From NCBI GenBank assembly GCA_038245255.1, contig JBBRSQ010000001.1:2335-66334 (forward strand): a DNA stretch of 64,000 bases. The letters are read 5' to 3'. Both the position numbers and the translations under genes were made by a program. Shown in pieces: positions 3,042 to 54,300 of the stretch (positions are counted from its first letter, which is position 1; every line of letters begins with the position of its first letter). Origin of the DNA: Patescibacteria group bacterium. GTDB taxonomy: Bacteria > Patescibacteriota > Patescibacteriia > Patescibacteriales > UBA12465. Below the pieces are notes generated by a model. It searched no databases. It saw only the letters and a program-made list of their open reading frames with translations, and was not told where the DNA came from.

Positions 3042-4737
3042 ATTTAGTCCAATCTTCAGCGATTTCGACTAAAATCTTAAATGGTGCCTCAAGAATGAAA
3101 TCAAAAATAAATATAAATACATTAATCTTTGAAACATTGTTTGATAACCACTTGCCAACTAAAATTATCGGCATGTAAAACAAATCGATAATAAAAGTAA
3201 ACAAATTCTCTCTTTTTTCGACAATTAAAAGGTCTTTAACGCCTTTGGTAACAATGATGCTAAAAAAGCTAACAAAGGCCAAGAAGAATAAGAATATCGT
3301 TATACTAACCCAATTAAAGTTAATAATTAGTAAAAGTTTAATAATTAAATAAATTGAAACTGTAAAGGAAGCCGCATAAATTAAACTAAATATCGCGCTA
3401 ATAAAGCCTTTACGCCCAACTGGCTTGCGTAAAGTAATCGGTTGTTTTTTTTCATTTCCAACAAAAGCAATTTCCTTAATTCCATTTATAATTTTGTCGG
3501 TATTATCCTCCTGTGGAGTTCTGGTTAAAAGAACGATAAAAAATAGAAGAACGGCTGGAAAAGAGATATTAATTCCTAGTGCGAATATATTTAAAGGCTC
3601 ATGAAACCAATTAATGGCCGGAAGCTCAATTGCAATTGCAAAAATAGATTTCGTTAAAAAAATATAAATAATGCTTCGAATGGCGGCGCGCCATAGTTTT
3701 CCTTTGGCCTTTTTATATTTTAAATTACATATTTTTCTAACACTAGCAATAAAATTCTTTTCGCTTTTCTGAAGCTCACCATAAACTTTCGTCGGATCAC
3801 TCTCAATTGTTTCCGCTAAGACTGTGAAATAAAGCGCATAAACCTGTACTAGTTTATCAAGTTGGCGCGTTAAAGGATGATTCAGCTGTACTTTAACTAT
3901 AGCATTAAGTTCGTGCATCTTTGCGGCAATCGCTTTTATTTTTTTATCATCATCAGCGTCTAAAACATCTTTATCACGTAAATCAATCCAATCGCTATTA
4001 TAATATTTAAATAAGACAAAACCGAGCATGTCTTCGTCTAGTTTTAAATAGGTTCGACCAATACTCAAATAAATTTGAATATCCAAATCATCGCCATAAG
4101 GCAAATCAGCTGGCAATTTAATATCTCTAACTAGGGTATCAAAAAGGTTATTTACAATTATCTGTTTAACGCGGTTAGGCGCAAGATTCTCTTCAATTTC
4201 GCAAGCTGCTAAAGTTAAAAGCCAAGTGACTAAATGATTTTTTTCATTAATTAAATCTTTCGCCCTATTAATATCAGTCTTCAGACTGAGTGAGGCATTA
4301 ATTTTCAAAACCATCTGATCCTTCAGGCGAATGTATTTTTCCAGTAAAACTGCAATTTCCCGTAGCTTTGTTTCTGGTATTTTATTGTTCGGCAAATAAC
4401 TAGCTCTAATAAGCTCAACCAGCAAGTGGTTGGCGATACCAACACTGTCAGTTTCTCTAACGACGCCTTCAATCATTACCTGCCGACGCAGAATCCGAGC
4501 TATCGCATTTTTACGAAGCAGATGTTCTTCTTCATAGTCAACAGCATTACGAACCTTTTCATAAAAAAAAGCCACCCGTGAAATTATCGTCGAAACTTTA
4601 ATTTTCGTGATATCATCAAAGAGTTGTTCTTTAATATTTTGTTCGCTGTAGATTACTTGAAAAAGTTTTTTTGTGTTCTCATTAATCTCCACCGGTTGCA
4701 AATCTTCGGCTCTTTTAATTAGATTTGGGCTAACCAT
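3010..4737 (-). CDS. hypothetical membrane protein with a soluble N-terminal domain and a C-terminal multi-TM region
   Basis: 575-aa ORF. The C-terminal third is strongly hydrophobic. No motif was recognised. Confidence 0.5.
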   Translation of the reverse strand: MVSPNLIKRAEDLQPVEINENTKKLFQVIYSEQNIKEQLFDDITKIKVSTIISRVAFFYEKVRNAVDYEEEHLLRKNAIARILRRQVMIEGVVRETDSVGIANHLLVELIRASYLPNNKIPETKLREIAVLLEKYIRLKDQMVLKINASLSLKTDINRAKDLINEKNHLVTWLLTLAACEIEENLAPNRVKQIIVNNLFDTLVRDIKLPADLPYGDDLDIQIYLSIGRTYLKLDEDMLGFVLFKYYNSDWIDLRDKDVLDADDDKKIKAIAAKMHELNAIVKVQLNHPLTRQLDKLVQVYALYFTVLAETIESDPTKVYGELQKSEKNFIASVRKICNLKYKKAKGKLWRAAIRSIIYIFLTKSIFAIAIELPAINWFHEPLNIFALGINISFPAVLLFFIVLLTRTPQEDNTDKIINGIKEIAFVGNEKKQPITLRKPVGRKGFISAIFSLIYAASFTVSIYLIIKLLLIINFNWVSITIFLFFLAFVSFFSIIVTKGVKDLLIVEKRENLFTFIIDLFYMPIILVGKWLSNNVSKINVFIFIFDFILEAPFKILVEIAEDWTKYVRERRENME

Positions 4738-10043: not shown

Positions 10044-11498
10044 TTAAACTTTATATTGTTTTTTAATTAATTTATCATCTTCAACTCTTTTTTCCTCAAT
10101 TACTTCTTTAGCTTTTAATCTTAATTCATCAAGATCAAATTCATTTAACTGCTTTACGCGCTCCTTTAGCCAGACTAAGTTGTTTAGTTCTGGATCTTCT
10201 AAGACATCGCTCAGTAGTACGTCAAGAATGGCGCCAATCTTCGGGCTCGGGGCTATCTTTAAGATTTTAATTATATCATTACCATTAAGTTTTAACATTT
10301 TTACTGATATCGGATCATTTTGTACTTTCTCCATCATGTAGCGAAGATGTCTTAATTTATATGGCATTGCCTTCGGGGTTCCCGACCCTAATCGATCAGC
10401 CACTCTTAAATCAATCAGATCACTCAAATTATCTTTTCCAACTTTTACAATTAAGCGTCTGACCGAAGCTGCCGTTACTTCCCCAACATTATAATAAAAC
10501 ATGTGGTTCTTTACAAGATTGACGACTCTGGTTTGGTCAGCAACGGAAAACTTTAAACGCGTCATTATTTTATCGGTCATTCTCGCACCTAAATGTTCGT
10601 GGTTATAAAATGTAGCAATGTCATTAATAATCTTGCGAGTCTTTGGCTTTCCAACATCATGAAGAAGAGCGGCTAAGCGAACTTGCCAATCTTTATTGGG
10701 ACAACATTTCAAAGCTAATAAGTTGTGTTTAAAAACCGGGTAAACATGGTGTCTATCCTGATTGACACCGACTCCCTGCTCGAGCTCGGGCAAAATATAT
10801 TGTAATAATTTCGTCTCGTGTAAAAGCATTATGCCTTCATAAGCCTCATTAGAAGCTAAAATTTTAATAAGCTCATCACGAATTCTCTCTTTTGAAACAA
10901 ATTTTATACTACCGGCTAACTTTAAAATTGCGCGCTGAGTTTTTGGTTCTAATTCAAAATCAAGTTGGGAGCGAAAACGAATTGCTCGCAACATCCTTAA
11001 GGCATCCTCCTTAAAGCGATCACTAGGTTCACCGACAGCGCGAATAATTTTAGCCTTAATATCTTTCTGACCACCAAATAAATCAATAATTTTTTCAGGC
11101 GCGGTTGGGTCAAGTGCTAGGGCATTAATAGTGAAATCGCGTCGTTCTAGATCCTTATCAAGCTGGGTTTCAAACTGAACAACATCGGGGTGACGGCGGT
11201 CGGAATATCCTTGTTCACTTCGATAAGTAGTAATTTCAACTACATCCTCTAGTTGTCCTTTAATTTCTTTTTCAGTTACCTCAGAACGAACTGGCACTAA
11301 AACTGTTCCAAAAGTATTCTCATATTTTGAGTCAGGAAAAATCTTAGAAATTTGTTCCGGTAAAGCATTGGTAGTAATATCCCAATCTTTTGGTACTTTT
11401 TTCATTAAAATGTCACGCACGCACCCACCAACAATATAGGCCTCGTAGCCCGAGGCCTTAATATCGTTAATAATTTTTTCAATATATTCTGGAATCAT
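10044..11498 (-). CDS. cca: CCA tRNA nucleotidyltransferase (pol-beta head plus HD domain)
   Basis: GGCVRD...DWD nucleotidyltransferase motif and HD motif (LHDVGKP). Confidence 0.85.
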   Translation of the reverse strand: MIPEYIEKIINDIKASGYEAYIVGGCVRDILMKKVPKDWDITTNALPEQISKIFPDSKYENTFGTVLVPVRSEVTEKEIKGQLEDVVEITTYRSEQGYSDRRHPDVVQFETQLDKDLERRDFTINALALDPTAPEKIIDLFGGQKDIKAKIIRAVGEPSDRFKEDALRMLRAIRFRSQLDFELEPKTQRAILKLAGSIKFVSKERIRDELIKILASNEAYEGIMLLHETKLLQYILPELEQGVGVNQDRHHVYPVFKHNLLALKCCPNKDWQVRLAALLHDVGKPKTRKIINDIATFYNHEHLGARMTDKIMTRLKFSVADQTRVVNLVKNHMFYYNVGEVTAASVRRLIVKVGKDNLSDLIDLRVADRLGSGTPKAMPYKLRHLRYMMEKVQNDPISVKMLKLNGNDIIKILKIAPSPKIGAILDVLLSDVLEDPELNNLVWLKERVKQLNEFDLDELRLKAKEVIEEKRVEDDKLIKKQYKV

Positions 11499-49814: not shown

Positions 49815-50489
49815 TTATTTAAATAAAACTGGTACTTTTACTGAAGCATCATTTTCTGGCAAACCGGAAGGATTATCTTTAGAAATTACTAAATAACCAC
49901 TAGTCGCCATTGTCAAATATGTTAACTCAGAAGTAAATCTAACCGGCTTTTCAGTCATCCAGTCATCTTGAGCGGTACCGTAATGAGCGACAATTAAATT
50001 ATTATTATTGTCATATAATTTAACTGGCAAAGTCGCTTCAAAAAACCAATTACCAATAGCCGTGCCTTCAATTTTTAAAGGTGAGCTAACAAGTTCGTTT
50101 TGTTTTGGACTAACAACGACTACTTCATTAGAGAAGCTCGCTTGAGGTTCATCTCCTGCCTGAGTGCTAGTCACAATATCCATTTCACATTTTTCCTCCC
50201 AAACACGTAAACACTTCTCTTTTAAATCACACCAAGAATAACCAGCCGAGGCAATACAACCATGTTCGTCTCGGTCATTTCCGACTAAAGATTCTCCCTG
50301 ACTACCAGGGCAAAGTGTTGTTGGCCTGGCTGCCTTTGGATTTCCGTGCTTAGCCCATTGACTATCAGTACAGACCCAATTGTCTTCCTGACTAGTGGCT
50401 CGTAAAACAATTGCACTAAAGATAATAACACCAACTACTCCTAACAATAAATAAGATTTTTTCATAAAATTATTTTTATTAATTACCAA
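49815..50489 (-). CDS. hypothetical secreted Cys-rich protein
   Basis: Signal peptide MKKSYLLLGVVGVIIFSAIV and 8 Cys in the mature part. The start is likely the ATG at 50465; the track start is a TTG. Lies immediately downstream of the promoter at the left inverted-repeat terminus. Confidence 0.55.
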   Translation of the reverse strand: MVINKNNFMKKSYLLLGVVGVIIFSAIVLRATSQEDNWVCTDSQWAKHGNPKAARPTTLCPGSQGESLVGNDRDEHGCIASAGYSWCDLKEKCLRVWEEKCEMDIVTSTQAGDEPQASFSNEVVVVSPKQNELVSSPLKIEGTAIGNWFFEATLPVKLYDNNNNLIVAHYGTAQDDWMTEKPVRFTSELTYLTMATSGYLVISKDNPSGLPENDASVKVPVLFK

Positions 50490-50494
50490 CTTAT

Positions 50495-50849
50495 GGTGTC
50501 TCTATTGTACCAAGTTAGAACCTATTTTCAAAACAAATGATGTCGCACGCGCGAAGCGCGTGGTGAAGCGAAACTAAATCGTACGCTCGGAGAATCGCCC
50601 TGCCACCGCCTCGCTTCGCTCGGCAACTCCGAAAGAAAAAACACTCCTTGCATTTCTGATTTGGCGGGGGTGAAATTTCTTTTGAAAAAGGAAAGGGTGT
50701 TTTTCTTTCGGGGTTCTGCCCGAAAAGATATTCGGACAGGCGGAGTGCAAATGCAAATGTGGAACGCGAGCGGAAAATTTTGCGGAGGACTGGGGGTTTG
50801 GGCGAAAGGACTCCGCAAAATTCTGTTTCGCGTATTTGATTTTGTGGGG
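50495..50849. repeat. left copy of a 355-bp GC-rich inverted repeat (IR-L), likely a structured non-coding element
   Basis: Reverse-complement match to 53816..54170 with only 2 mismatches. About 55-60% GC in a ~35% GC context. Contains internal hairpins (cacgcgc-gaa-gcgcgtg; ttttgcggag...ctccgcaaaa) and a long-range 15-nt complementary pair (ccgaaagaaaaaaca / tgtttttctttcgg). Confidence 0.9.
50504..50537 (-). promoter_or_regulatory. outward-facing extended -10 promoter at the IR-L outer terminus, reading into the Cys-rich secreted protein gene
   Basis: On the minus strand TTGAAA, 16-nt spacer, TGgTACAAT (-10 hexamer at 50509-50504). The predicted transcription start near 50497 is ~32 nt upstream of the ATG at 50465. 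Confidence 0.5.
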
Positions 50850-50906: not shown

Positions 50907-51536
50907 TTATGATAATTTTATTTTTCCAAAGCTATTTTCTTTAATTTCACTTGATAAATTTAATCTTTCTCTAACTTTATTATTTATTTCTTGAATTGTT
51001 TCTTTTAAATCTCCATTGTTATTGATAAAATCGATAGAAATACCAAGTTCTTTAGCCTGTTTAATGGCTTCATTTTTTTCTAATTCTAATTGCTCTTGTA
51101 TATAATTAAAATCTATAACTCTATCATTTCTTTCAGAAATATCTTTTATTCTTCTATTGAGAATATTCTCTGGAGTTGAATTAACAACGAAAATCGCTTT
51201 CATTTGCTCATAATCTTCATTACGAATATTCCTCACAGAAAAATCTTTACCTTCTACTTCAAAATAAATAAAATGACCATCTAAAATTCTAATTGTATAA
51301 GGATCATTTTTATCTTCCTCATAAATTATTCTAAACATTTCTGGTCTATATTTTCCACGAACATCATCTGGTAGTTTTCTAAATTCTTCTGGAGAAATAT
51401 CACCAGCAAGATGGCACAGAATTGGTAAACCGCGAATTCTAAGAGCCTTATGACTTTCATCATTCAATCTCTCTACAAGTCCTTTAATTACAGAAGTTTT
51501 TCCAGTACCAGGTATTCCAGCAACGTAAATAAACAT
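50907..51536 (-). CDS. P-loop NTPase, predicted (deoxy)nucleotide/nucleoside kinase-like (AAA/adenylate-kinase-like fold)
   Basis: Walker A GIPGTGKTS at the extreme N-terminus. Small 209-aa kinase-like size. Confidence 0.65.
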   Translation of the reverse strand: MFIYVAGIPGTGKTSVIKGLVERLNDESHKALRIRGLPILCHLAGDISPEEFRKLPDDVRGKYRPEMFRIIYEEDKNDPYTIRILDGHFIYFEVEGKDFSVRNIRNEDYEQMKAIFVVNSTPENILNRRIKDISERNDRVIDFNYIQEQLELEKNEAIKQAKELGISIDFINNNGDLKETIQEINNKVRERLNLSSEIKENSFGKIKLS

Positions 51537-51539
51537 AAA

Positions 51540-52112
51540 TTATTGTGTATTAAAAATACATTCCCCTGTTAAATTATTCTGAGTTTTATATTCATCCCAA
51601 AGTTTTAAATACGCTTTATTTATTCTTTCATTTTTTTCTAAACCTAATTCTAAAATAGATTTTTCTATATTATCTTCTTCTCCTTCTATTTCAATAAAAT
51701 AACCAAAAGGTAATTCATCAACAACAAAATCACAATTATTTATATTTTCCAGTCTGTATCTTCTCTTCTCAAAAATATGTTCGATTGGGTATTCTAAAGC
51801 AAAGAACATGCCTCTTATACTATTTATTTTTTCATCATCAACATTCTCTAACAAAAACTCATGCTCATCTCTTATAAATAAGTTCCCCAGATTTTCTTCT
51901 TTCTTATTTTTAACCTTTACTGTTACATAAGCTTTTCTACTATCTTTTTCTATTACTTCTTTTATTCTAGGGAAAATTCCCTTTTCCATATTCTTATATT
52001 CATTCGTAAAAAAACCATATGTTTTTTCAAACTGAAACTTACTTTTATCTTTTACAAATTTGTCAAAAATTTCTTTATTTATTTTTAATTTAATTTCTAT
52101 TTCTTTTTTCAT
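51540..52112 (-). CDS. CYTH-domain (triphosphate tunnel metalloenzyme / class IV adenylate cyclase-like) protein
   Basis: N-terminal EIEIKLKI matches the ExExK CYTH signature. The ~190-aa length fits a single CYTH domain. Confidence 0.55.
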   Translation of the reverse strand: MKKEIEIKLKINKEIFDKFVKDKSKFQFEKTYGFFTNEYKNMEKGIFPRIKEVIEKDSRKAYVTVKVKNKKEENLGNLFIRDEHEFLLENVDDEKINSIRGMFFALEYPIEHIFEKRRYRLENINNCDFVVDELPFGYFIEIEGEEDNIEKSILELGLEKNERINKAYLKLWDEYKTQNNLTGECIFNTQ

Positions 52113-52132
52113 ATTTTAAAAATTAAAAAATA

Positions 52133-52996
52133 TTAATAATAACCTCCAGATTTTTTAGGATAGGGTTTTAAATACTCAGTTCTATCTTTTATTTTTGCTT
52201 CCAAAAAACACCTTCTTCTGTCCCAACAACAAGGACAAGTTCCACAATGAATTTTACTTGATTTTATACAACTTCTTGTTTTTGAAAGATCTAGACCATT
52301 TTCTTCACAATAAGTGATTAAAACATCCTTGTCGTAATAATTACCCAATTCTACTTCAATAGGTAAAGATATATATTGAAAGTTATAATCGTTTAAAATA
52401 TGGCAAGTTTCTAGATTAAGCATTCTCTGCCAAGTAAGAGAACAATGAAAAGAAGTATCGCTAGCAACATGTGCAATAAAAACAGTGTTAACATTCATTC
52501 CTTTATTTTTTAAAGAAATTGCATACTCCATACCCGTAAGAAATATAATAGAGTTTCTAGCTGGATAAGATACATGGGCTGAATGTTCTTTTTTATAAAA
52601 TTTCTTTTTTACTTCTCTTAAATCATCTTTGTATTCCAAGGCGGGTGTATTAACTTTAATTTCTTTTGTTTTGTGGTAAAGTTTTGGAAATTTTTTAGCA
52701 AAAAGTTTATCATAATAATTAATTGATTTTTTTTCCCATTTATAACAATTTTGACCTCTATTTATAAAAAATGGAAACACTTGATAACCAAACTCATTCA
52801 TCAAAATAAAAATATTTGACACCGCATCTGCTCCACCAGACATACAACACACAACAGCACTACCCTTTGGAGGCATTTTTACAACATAATTTCTTTTATC
52901 TATAAAAATTTTATTTAGGACTTTTACAACTTTTAAATCTTCGTTTATTTTATCCTCAATTTTTATTTTGCCTTTATTCTTGATTATTTTGATCAT
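52133..52996 (-). CDS. PP-loop ATPase (adenine-nucleotide alpha-hydrolase), QueC-like with a C-terminal Cys cluster
   Basis: SGGADAVS PP-loop after a ~45-aa N-terminal extension. C-terminal CIKSSKIHCGTCPCCWDRRRC resembles the QueC zinc-binding motif. Confidence 0.6.
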   Translation of the reverse strand: MIKIIKNKGKIKIEDKINEDLKVVKVLNKIFIDKRNYVVKMPPKGSAVVCCMSGGADAVSNIFILMNEFGYQVFPFFINRGQNCYKWEKKSINYYDKLFAKKFPKLYHKTKEIKVNTPALEYKDDLREVKKKFYKKEHSAHVSYPARNSIIFLTGMEYAISLKNKGMNVNTVFIAHVASDTSFHCSLTWQRMLNLETCHILNDYNFQYISLPIEVELGNYYDKDVLITYCEENGLDLSKTRSCIKSSKIHCGTCPCCWDRRRCFLEAKIKDRTEYLKPYPKKSGGYY

Positions 52997-53720
52997 ATTT
53001 TTTATAACTATTAATTATTTTTTTAGCATCCTCAATTGTTTCTTGATAAATATGAGCATCAGTAATCATTCCATCCAAAGAACCGATCCAAATTTTTGTG
53101 TTTAGTTTAGTTTCTAATCTCTTTGCTACCTCTTCAGATAGTAATGCAATCGCAGCAAAATTACCTCCAGCTTTCTGGTAGGCATCTATTGATCGTGCAT
53201 TAAAAATTGTATTTAAATGATAGCCATTCTGATTATCAATTTTAATTAATCTGAATTGAATAGTTGTAATACAGGGCAGATAATCATCTTTGGGTCTTTC
53301 AAGAGTTCTTTCATAATCTTCTTTTCTGACAAAGCTCATTATAGCTTTTTTGCTTTCTGGTATTTCTGCAAGCCTATCCACCACAAAATCAAGCATTTTC
53401 CATTCTTTGATTCTTGCATAATAGCTTTGACTTCCATCTGAGAATGATGGAACAATATCAAAGTCATGCATAATTTCTTTATTAAAAGTTAAATCAATAA
53501 TTGCATCTATGTTTTCTTTATCCCCATATCGACTAAGCAATTGATCTGGATAAATTTGGGAGTTTGATCTAACTCTAATATTTTGAAGACATAATCTATT
53601 TCTGCCTTCATCAGAAGTTATGTTCCCATTTTTTAAAATTACTTCTACTAAACTTAACCAGGTACTCCCCAATACTTCACCATAAATCAAAAGGCCAAAA
53701 GGCTCTATTTTTATGTACAT
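52974..53720 (-). CDS. thymidylate-synthase-fold enzyme (ThyA-like pyrimidine C5 methylase/hydroxymethylase homolog)
   Basis: SKKAIMSFV, YLPCITTIQFRL and ARSIDAYQKAGGNFAAIALL align to the ThyA SRRIIVSAW, LAPCHAFFQFYV and [20 protein letters not shown] motifs. The catalytic Cys and the uracil-specifying Asn are retained. Confidence 0.7.
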   Translation of the reverse strand: MYIKIEPFGLLIYGEVLGSTWLSLVEVILKNGNITSDEGRNRLCLQNIRVRSNSQIYPDQLLSRYGDKENIDAIIDLTFNKEIMHDFDIVPSFSDGSQSYYARIKEWKMLDFVVDRLAEIPESKKAIMSFVRKEDYERTLERPKDDYLPCITTIQFRLIKIDNQNGYHLNTIFNARSIDAYQKAGGNFAAIALLSEEVAKRLETKLNTKIWIGSLDGMITDAHIYQETIEDAKKIINSYKKYDQNNQE

Positions 53721-53815: not shown

Positions 53816-54170
53816 CCCCACAAAATCAAATACGCGAAACAGAATTTTGCGGAGTCCTTTCGCCCAAACCCCCAGTCCTCCGCAAAATTTTCCGCTCGCG
53901 TTCCACATTTGCATTTGCACTCCGCCTGTCCGAATATCTATTCGGGCAGAACCCCGAAAGAAAAACACCCTTTCCTTTTTCAAAAGAAATTTCACCCCCG
54001 CCAAATCAGAAATGCAAGGAGTGTTTTTTCTTTCGGGGTTGCCGAGCGAAGCGAGGCGGTGGCAGGGCGATTCTCCGAGCGTACGATTTAGTTTCGCTTC
54101 ACCACGCGCTTCGCGCGTGCGACATCATTTGTTTTGAAAATAGGTTCTAACTTGGTACAATAGAGACACC
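53816..54170. repeat. right copy of the 355-bp GC-rich inverted repeat (IR-R)
   Basis: Reverse complement of 50495..50849 with 2 mismatches. An outward-facing TTGAAA-N16-TGgTACAAT promoter sits at 54134..54161 on the + strand. Confidence 0.9.
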
Positions 54171-54215
54171 AGAAACGAACTAGACGGCTTTTTCAAAGCC
54201 GTCTAGTTCGTTTCT
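54171..54215. repeat. 45-bp perfect palindrome (21-bp arms, 3-nt loop) between IR-R and the tRNA-Leu 3' end; likely a bidirectional terminator or recombination site
   Basis: agaaacgaactagacggcttt-ttc-aaagccgtctagttcgtttct. Exact complementarity over 21 bp. Shares its last nucleotide with the tRNA 3' end. Confidence 0.85.
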
Positions 54216-54300
54216 GGTGCCCGAGGGGGGATTTGAACCCCCATGGGATTTCTCCCGCAGCGTTCTGAACACTGCGTGTCTACCGTTTCACCACCCGTGC
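54215..54300 (-). tRNA. tRNA-Leu (anticodon CAG), type II with a long variable arm, CCA encoded
   Basis: Minus strand reads GCACGGGTGGTGAAACGGTAGACACGCAGTGTTCAGAACGCTGCGGGAGAAATCCCATGGGGGTTCAAATCCCCCCTCGGGCACCA. Folds into a cloverleaf with a D-arm, anticodon loop TTCAGAA, variable stem CGGGA/TCCC, T-arm GGGGGTTCAAATCCCCC and a 7-bp acceptor stem with one A-G mismatch. Confidence 0.85.

Follow-up and report, generated by a model that had tools for sequence, protein, structure and literature searches.

The question raised by this locus is whether the outward-facing, promoter-like motif found at each end of a pair of long inverted repeats serves as a promoter for the neighbouring host gene, or whether the DNA that carries it has other functions. 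The two 359-bp repeats, which differ from each other at 3 positions, lie within the window, i.e., the whole 64,000-nucleotide stretch of DNA analysed here, and the DNA between them has a GC content of 25%, compared with ~37% for the genome. The initial annotation had interpreted the motif as a dedicated outward promoter of a mobile element. Its observation of the motif was confirmed, and its promoter interpretation is supported in part. The termini are probably the ends of a non-autonomous cargo module, which belongs to an abundant family of mobile elements of CPR (Patescibacteria) bacteria run by a large serine recombinase (LSR), and this element family is a more interesting result than the promoter reading. 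The features discussed below are collected in Table 1.

Table 1. Coordinates of the features in the window and in related loci (t, tip; A, hairpin-rich region; b, 20-nt arm of the palindrome)
Feature	Locus	Position	Strand	Remarks
Gmad2 host gene	window	49815-50465	-	signal peptide, 6 Cys; junction would be attR
Left inverted repeat, 359 bp	window	50491-50849		outer ~249 nt (50491-50739) are the family-conserved A+t
Left repeat, inner 110 nt	window	50740-50849		duplicated in this window only
Left tip, t	window	50495-50540	-	-35 TTGAAA 50531-50526; TGG 50512-50510; -10 TACAAT 50509-50504
Left tip, predicted transcription start	window	~50497	-	from motif position
Left tip, plus-strand reading	window	50493-50540	+	M-VSLLYQVRTYFQNK-stop, relic of LSR C-terminus
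att core TGGTG, left tip	window	50495-50499		
Cargo operon	window	50907-53720	-	four genes, 25% GC
P-loop kinase	window	50907-51536	-	
CYTH-like	window	51540-52112	-	
QueC-like	window	52133-52996	-	
ThyA-like (thymidylate-synthase-like)	window	52974-53720	-	
Extended -10 of cargo operon, TGGTATATT	window	53772-53764	-	in unique DNA
Right inverted repeat, 359 bp	window	53816-54174		family-conserved portion 53926-54174
Right tip, t	window	54125-54171	+	TTGAAA 54134-54139; TACAAT 54156-54161
Right tip, minus-strand reading	window		-	L-VSLLYQVRTYFQNK-stop; stop is the reverse complement of 54125-54127
CACCA, right tip	window	54167-54171		
Putative collapsed LSR module	window	54172-54214		b (54172-54191), TTC, reverse complement of b (54195-54214)
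tRNA-Leu(CAG), integration target	window	54215-54300	-	3′ CACCA is plus-strand TGGTG 54215-54219
tRNA-Leu(CAG) promoter	window	54340-54311	-	TTGTCA-18-TAAATT
A-t (counterpart of right end)	L142	107-126		intact counterpart of the right end of the window
Module (counterpart of right end)	L142	122-1877		
tRNA-Leu(CAG) (counterpart of right end)	L142	1873-1959		
tRNA-Leu (tag, taa, caa, gag, cag)	L041, L092, L097, L118, L142			5-nt overlap with module
tRNA-Phe	L070, L105			5-nt overlap with module
tRNA-Lys	L119			5-nt overlap with module
tRNA-Val	L075			5-nt overlap with module
IS110-like interruption or truncation	L070	6629-8081		
IS110-like interruption or truncation	L105			
IS110-like interruption or truncation	L043	116-370		
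Unrelated operon-flanking repeats	L009	1377-1578 / 4162-4363		
Unrelated operon-flanking repeats	L024	6558-6598 / 10117-10157		
Unrelated operon-flanking repeats	L011	upstream of 7277		

The promoter-like motif at the repeat termini

At both repeat ends, TTGAAA is followed by a 16-nt spacer (13 nt plus TGG) and TACAAT, oriented outward. The motif stands as initially annotated (TTGAAA-N16-TGgTACAAT), except that TGg had been counted separately from N16, whereas the 16 nt include it. Both copies match the consensus at 10 of 12 positions and carry the TG of an extended -10, and they are the sole sites of this quality between 49000 and 55500. The window holds two exact copies of the 37-mer of the motif where 0 are expected; the copies are not independent of each other, since they belong to the two arms of the 359-bp inverted repeat. 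Loose consensus matches are frequent (29 seen vs. 22.9 ± 4.8 in shuffles). The extended -10 TGNTANAAT is the usual promoter form in this genome; 10 of its 30 copies in the window are intergenic, with intergenic DNA making up 8.6% of the window, and 8 of these 10 end 6-38 nt 5′ of a same-strand start codon.

By these statistics the terminal motif is a good one, and it is correctly placed for the host gene at the left end, which encodes a signal-peptide protein with a Gmad2 domain (6 Cys rather than the 8 originally counted). The ATG of this gene, hereafter Gmad2, lies 29 nt beyond the left-tip CACCA. The left motif ends 38 nt before the ATG at 50465, giving a predicted 5′ UTR of ~32 nt, and a promoter scan listed no other minus-strand promoter-like site in the 29 nt between CACCA and the ATG, as had also been claimed. 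As in the outward promoters of IS elements and transposons, the -35/-10 pair is found in the terminal ~50 bp and points out.

The cargo segment

The element in the window is a four-gene nucleotide-modification cassette between inverted repeats, whose operon may serve in nucleotide or base modification. A comparison of the operon with defence systems gave generic QueC and kinase matches alone, and a literature search found no paper joining the three domains of the operon. The operon is kept across many CPR lineages, including variants with Ham1 replacing CYTH or with a fused QueC-Ham1 (L005-L030). Contigs with exact copies of the window proteins exist, and their assemblies break at the repeat; these proteins are present in the runs SRR19962014, SRR19962012 and SRR15443081. 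An exact look-up of the ORFs inside the repeat itself found no further copies on record.

Two other functions of the repeat were considered and rejected. The repeat is not a regulatory region of the cassette, since the close relatives L028 and L030 carry the operon without repeats, and the inverted repeats that flank this operon in L009, L024 and L006 are unrelated in sequence. An inverton, or promoter switch, was rejected because the promoters sit within the repeats, and inversion would therefore alter nothing.

In another CPR clade, the same operon lies between different, unrelated inverted repeats adjoining tRNA-Gln (Table 1), each of which contains a promoter facing inward, AGATTTACAAAA...TGTATAAT; on one side this could serve the operon and on the other a convergent kinase gene. 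Unrelated inverted-repeat pairs are also found at small cargo in L014 (11685-11762 and 13149-13226) and L015 (1449-1564 and 2245-2360), with the hairpin GCGCGGCG-CCCCCACC-CGCCGCGC common to both, and those of L006 (53-374 and 9155-9505) enclose 9 kb including an IS30-like transposase. Repeat-bounded cargo may be common among CPR genomes.

Insertion between tRNA-Leu and Gmad2

The orthologous site is empty in L040, where the promoter, tRNA-Leu(CAG), tRNA-Val(CAC), 35 nt and the Gmad2 ATG are followed by the same downstream genes. The gene order in L038 is TypA, RNase HII, tRNA-Leu, an HD-domain gene, tRNA-Val, a 77-aa ORF and Gmad2. The empty site, together with the gene order common to L038, shows that 3.7 kb was inserted between tRNA-Leu and Gmad2, which upholds the original view of the repeat-bounded segment as a mobile element. 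The nearest Gmad2 relative, P0070, is 94% identical. Nowhere in the 64-kb window is there a tRNA-Val(CAC), the gene that L040 has between tRNA-Leu and Gmad2 and that L038 has 5′ of Gmad2, and its absence counts against the cargo-module reading. The tRNA-Leu(CAG) of the window has an A3:G70 mismatch in the acceptor stem vs. C3:G70 in L040, and its CCA end is encoded in the window, not in L040.

tRNA-Leu(CAG), the cargo operon and Gmad2 are co-directional. The junctions and the target have a short core in common, i.e., the 5-bp direct repeat TGGTG at 50495-50499 and 54215-54219, and the target is intact in the relative L040. CACCA alone is repeated, rather than the displaced tRNA fragment of tens of nt of a tyrosine-integrase island; no integrase is found in the element, and its relatives carry a serine recombinase. 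There is also no duplication outside the inverted repeats and no transposase in the element, in contrast to a DDE composite transposon. Based on the comparison with other genomes, we infer that the element has probably been mobile in this genome.

The tip as the C-terminus of a recombinase

The 20-mer TTGGTACAATAGAGACACCA from the tip gave >120 exact matches among the matches listed (metagenome contigs), in unrelated contexts, where it adjoins a ~1.9-kb LSR module, terminators or antisense tRNAs, or host start codons; this, along with the empty L040 site, assigns the terminus to a mobile element. The cassette and Gmad2 are found in none of the 120 loci fetched for TTGGTACAATAGAGACACCA among the matches listed, and viral contigs contain no copy of the 20-mer. 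Similarity between the window and metagenomes covers positions ~111-359 of the repeat at 75-90% identity and in many cases extends past the right tip into the palindrome. The element family does not include the inner 110 nt of the repeat, a point against the cargo-module reading.

As judged from the sequence, the 45 bp of the tip is the antisense of the last 15 codons and stop of a CPR LSR family: the reverse complement of the motif reads ...(L/M)VSLLYQVRTYFQNK-stop, and the tail codons across the family are VSLLYQxRTYFQN[KR]-stop. LSR ORFs of 537-552 aa, with the domains Resolvase + Recombinase + Zn_ribbon_recom, traverse the tip and end in ...KKPLSSVLVSLLYQARTYFQNK-stop (L060, L146, L104), the general form of their tails being ...KKPLSSVLVSLLYQ(A/V/T)RTYFQN(K/R)-stop. 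TACAAT is thus the reverse complement of the Leu-Tyr codons and TTGAAA that of the Phe-Gln codons, and the interval initially annotated as the promoter region, 50495-50540, has the TGGTG core and the stop codon as its exact limits. The same 45 bp probably forms the element-side arm of the LSR attachment site.

The variation of the tip was analysed in 72 distinct sequences. The Arg codon is CGC in 39, AGA in 20 and CGA in 13, and the Phe codon is TTT in 37 and TTC in 35; because of this synonymous Phe change, the -35 alternates between TTGAAA (32) and TTGGAA (35). The variability by codon position is 0.13, 0.08 and 0.26, and the stop codon is fixed. That the variation tracks codon positions indicates that the conservation derives from coding and recombination. 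The family was collected by an exact 20-mer search, and the conservation of the -10 cannot be judged from this set. Among 9 non-exact tips, TTGGTACAAT is unchanged in 7, and the differences fall in the 3′ half.

The LSR module and its tRNA targets

The LSR gene is found in a ~1.9-kb module, the inverted repeats of which (~147 bp) start at CACCA; in L125, L076, L118 and L142 they are 147 bp long, 99-100% identical and separated by ~1.46-1.59 kb. A promoter of the module's own precedes the LSR start codon. The module adjoins the tip in both orientations, and at its other end it shares exactly 5 nt with the 3′ terminus of a tRNA gene (Table 1). Among the best 120 homologues, the LSR C-terminus is a translated antisense tRNA in 68 (...LV-x-x-x-G[FLIV]EP...) and the tip peptide in 25. 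The family comprises at least 7913 clusters at 90% identity (E ≤ 1e-20), with sources named Patescibacteria or Parcubacteria, and many homologues lie on contigs of ~1.9-2.0 kb, the size of the LSR module. A 355-aa IS110-like transposase gene splits one recombinase gene directly behind ...AWHPLC, and another copy is truncated at the same residue (Table 1), which suggests site-specific insertion of an IS110-type element into the recombinase gene.

A tblastn search of the 64-kb window found no LSR gene (best match E = 0.66), i.e., the window copy does not encode the Resolvase + Recombinase + Zn_ribbon_recom recombinase, and the remnants comprise 16 tail codons and a 43-bp collapsed module; the window element is thus a non-autonomous derivative. 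The collapsed module is our reading of the palindrome beyond the right tip, which spans 53 bp (25+3+25, 54167-54219) instead of the 45 bp initially reported, and consists of CACCA, b (20 nt), TTC, the reverse complement of b and TGGTG. The right motif does point into this palindrome, as had been described, but the palindrome is probably not an unrelated structure; it appears to be what is left of a recombinase module at the 3′ end of tRNA-Leu. The sequence of b with GGCTTT-TTC-AAAGCC corresponds to the first ~29 nt of intact module repeats, both of which carry a GGCTTT-N3-AAAGCC mini-hairpin, and a deletion between the two mini-hairpin copies would leave exactly the window palindrome. Similar imperfect collapsed palindromes were observed at tRNA-Met (L144, L078), at tRNA-Gly (L066) and at an antisense tRNA-like 3′ end (L098).

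Twelve further loci show cargo modules of the same architecture, i.e., inverted t-A units with outward tips on either side of a segment of 1.2-4.7 kb. Their cargo is unrelated, and among it are a symporter, an Mrr-like nuclease together with a NUDIX domain protein, an Eco57I-like methylase and membrane proteins. Each A+t unit is the 3′ end of the LSR gene with its hairpin-rich 3′ flank. The order in L072 and L111 is LSR module, t-A, cargo, A-t, host gene. In L118 (7620-7730), two tips stand back to back with almost nothing between them, beside an LSR module and tRNA-Leu(gag), and this arrangement looks like an "empty" cargo module.

Proposed origin of the termini

In the proposed mechanism, the LSR module would enter tRNA genes precisely at their CACCA 3′ end. 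The t-A unit, i.e., ...TTGGTACAATAGAGACACCA followed by the hairpin-rich region of ~200-300 nt, would lie on the other side of the module; where the LSR gene faces t-A, t would provide the last 15 codons and A the 3′ flank. Cargo genes would be enclosed by two inverted t-A units whose tips face outward. The minus strand of the window would accordingly be read as tRNA-Leu(CAG)-CACCA / collapsed LSR module (43 bp) / TGGTG-t-A / cassette / A-t-CACCA / Gmad2, i.e., attL, element and attR with CACCA as the common core, and the motif at attR would face whichever host gene came after the tRNA. The motif would owe its conservation to being both the antisense of the tail codons of the LSR and part of the element-side att arm. 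The LSR presumably catalyses these joints, with a crossover that could fall within CACCA or in the middle of the mini-hairpin. To our knowledge, a 5-bp core with near-identical half-sites is unusual for serine integrases, which counts against this mechanism.

Two other origins of the termini appear very unlikely. In one, the locus is a degenerate composite transposon, in which inverted IS-like LSR copies once flanked the cassette, deletions removed what lay beyond the tips, and the adjacency to the tRNA is coincidental. LSR modules do lie outside both tips in L138 and L048. However, both breakpoints coincide exactly with CACCA, which gives the 5-bp direct repeat, the right junction repeats the standard tRNA-module-tip layout of L142, L041, L092 and L097, and the repeat runs 110 nt past the family-conserved unit on the cargo side. 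The other, no better placed, takes the 359-bp repeat for a two-copy structured non-coding RNA gene with the "promoter" as part of the RNA. The repeat indeed folds strongly, forming a number of strong hairpins (z = -6.2 for the outward strand, and -3.9), and the hairpins of the A region are kept, with 5-6 compensatory pairs among 23 representatives. However, the repeat gave no Rfam match except tRNA, either at gathering thresholds or at E ≤ 5, and therefore no covariance-model match to a known RNA family; the hairpins are palindromes that fit DNA-level sites equally well, and the tip is coding in intact family members.

Does the tip drive Gmad2?

Given that the termini are probably the ends of a cargo module, the tip may still act as a promoter. 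Since the 3.7-kb insertion cut Gmad2 off from the tRNA promoter of the L040 type, the tip would be the best candidate for a Gmad2 promoter, and a role as driver of the neighbouring secreted-protein gene is plausible. Whether the tip has promoter activity at all we would put at about even.

Among 97 distinct tip contexts, 52 face a repeat of the LSR module and 45 face other sequence. In 12 of the latter, a sense ATG-ORF begins within 40 nt, and 9 of these 12 begin at -1 to +12 nt, a distance which leaves no room for another promoter; the genes concerned encode TsaD, RluA-like, MscL, HD-domain, signal-peptide and LAGLIDADG proteins with normal N-termini. To these 9 junctions L072 is added, in which the ATG of a PduO-like gene directly follows the tip, and in L111 the ATG, that of TsaD, is found at +5; the MscL gene is that of L117. 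The "tRNA" class is empty in this sorting because ARAGORN missed the downstream antisense tRNAs, which were rechecked otherwise, including by eye. LAGLIDADG homing-endonuclease-like ORFs in L065 (277) and L055 (2365) start 0 or -1 nt after the tip. The short distances from tip to ATG could reflect the location of attB (tRNA plus abutting gene), not promoter selection.

The dedicated promoter of the initial annotation, under which the 45 bp was selected as a promoter and the coding on the opposite strand is incidental, is unlikely. It would account for the good extended -10 match, typical of this genome, for the recurrence of host start codons right at the tip, and for the unchanged TTGGTACAAT in most non-exact tips. 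However, upstream of the 20-mer the sequence varies by codon position, exchanging synonymous codons for Arg and for Phe and keeping its stop, TTGGAA and TTGAAA are equally frequent as the -35, full-length LSR ORFs use the tip codons, and about half of the contexts point into the LSR module, antisense or through its 147-bp repeat, while the LSR has a promoter of its own. It is possible, though we would not favour it, that there is no promoter function, the motif being an att arm and coding relic and Gmad2 being expressed by read-through from TGGTATATT (53772-53764). The cassette and Gmad2 are co-directional, no outward intrinsic-terminator-like site was found within the repeat, where the terminator-like hairpins all face inward, and the constraints of coding and att function suffice to explain the conservation. 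However, the strong hairpins of the repeat on its outward strand would impede read-through, and in L072, L111, L117, L065 and L086 a host ATG stands 0-5 nt from the tip, where expression would require either a tip promoter or read-through of the whole element.

Implications

A single 45-bp sequence can at once encode a protein tail, serve in recombination as an arm and act as a promoter, and a promoter call from the sequence alone would miss the first two functions. A broader proposal, which we advance tentatively, is that of an abundant two-module CPR system, composed of an LSR module at tRNA-CACCA and cargo modules with target-mimicking ends, in which each end would have three roles: it would be a recombination arm, it would supply the recombinase with an alternative C-terminal exon, and its outward extended -10 promoter would re-express the host gene cut off by the insertion, often as a near-leaderless mRNA. 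If this proposal is true, an expression platform is built into the att site.

The element family would offer a concrete route for the exchange of accessory genes among reduced-genome CPR bacteria, with nucleotide-modification, restriction and transport cargo. The homologue contigs of ~1.9-2.0 kb fit a repeat that fragments CPR metagenome assemblies, and recombinases recognising a short universal motif could interest genome engineers. The family would also extend serine-recombinase targeting to tRNA 3′ ends, which is treated as a speciality of tyrosine integrases in the island literature (PMC4383910). In the literature searched on serine recombinases with CPR/Patescibacteria or tRNA, no description of the family was found, which is not proof of novelty.

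Comparison with known systems

Outward promoters of IS elements include pOUT of IS10, the activation of neighbouring genes by IS1, IS2 and IS5, and ISAba1. The window motif resembles these in that a -35 and a -10 within the last tens of bp of a mobile element face outward and are placed for an adjacent host gene. However, it is the antisense of the last codons of a recombinase and part of a site-specific att arm, it is known here from sequence, and its family is presumably moved to tRNA 3′ ends by a serine recombinase rather than by a DDE transposase. The motif is thus like an IS outward promoter in a loose sense only, whereas the movement is like that of a large-serine-recombinase element.

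Large-serine-recombinase transposons and integrases include TnpX of Tn4451, TndX of Tn5397, phiC31 and Bxb1. The CPR family has in common with LSR elements the Resolvase + Recombinase + Zn-ribbon set, the position of the recombinase gene at the element edge, a short common core at the junctions and many targets for closely related enzymes. It differs from known LSR systems in targeting the CACCA 3′ end of many tRNA genes, in housing recombinase and cargo apart, the former in a ~1.9-kb module flanked by 147-bp inverted repeats and the latter in other modules that are likewise bounded by inverted repeats, and in a recombinase C-terminus that changes with the joint, the att arm doubling as the recombinase tail. 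Multi-targeting LSRs have been described, with no mention of tRNA (PMC10083194), and serine-family integrases are not known to target tRNA genes (PMC4383910).

The tyrosine-integrase tRNA islands of the Islander type (PMC4383910) also integrate in tRNA genes, regenerate the 3′ end, carry cargo and have a direct repeat at their ends. In contrast, the CPR elements depend on a serine recombinase, repeat 5 nt of the tRNA and have long terminal inverted repeats, and the window copy has lost the recombinase. MITE-like, mobilisable cassettes moved in trans resemble the window element in having no recombinase on board and ends in common with autonomous relatives; unlike them, the window element carries a four-gene operon, lacks a target-site duplication and is bounded by ends that are site-specific att arms.
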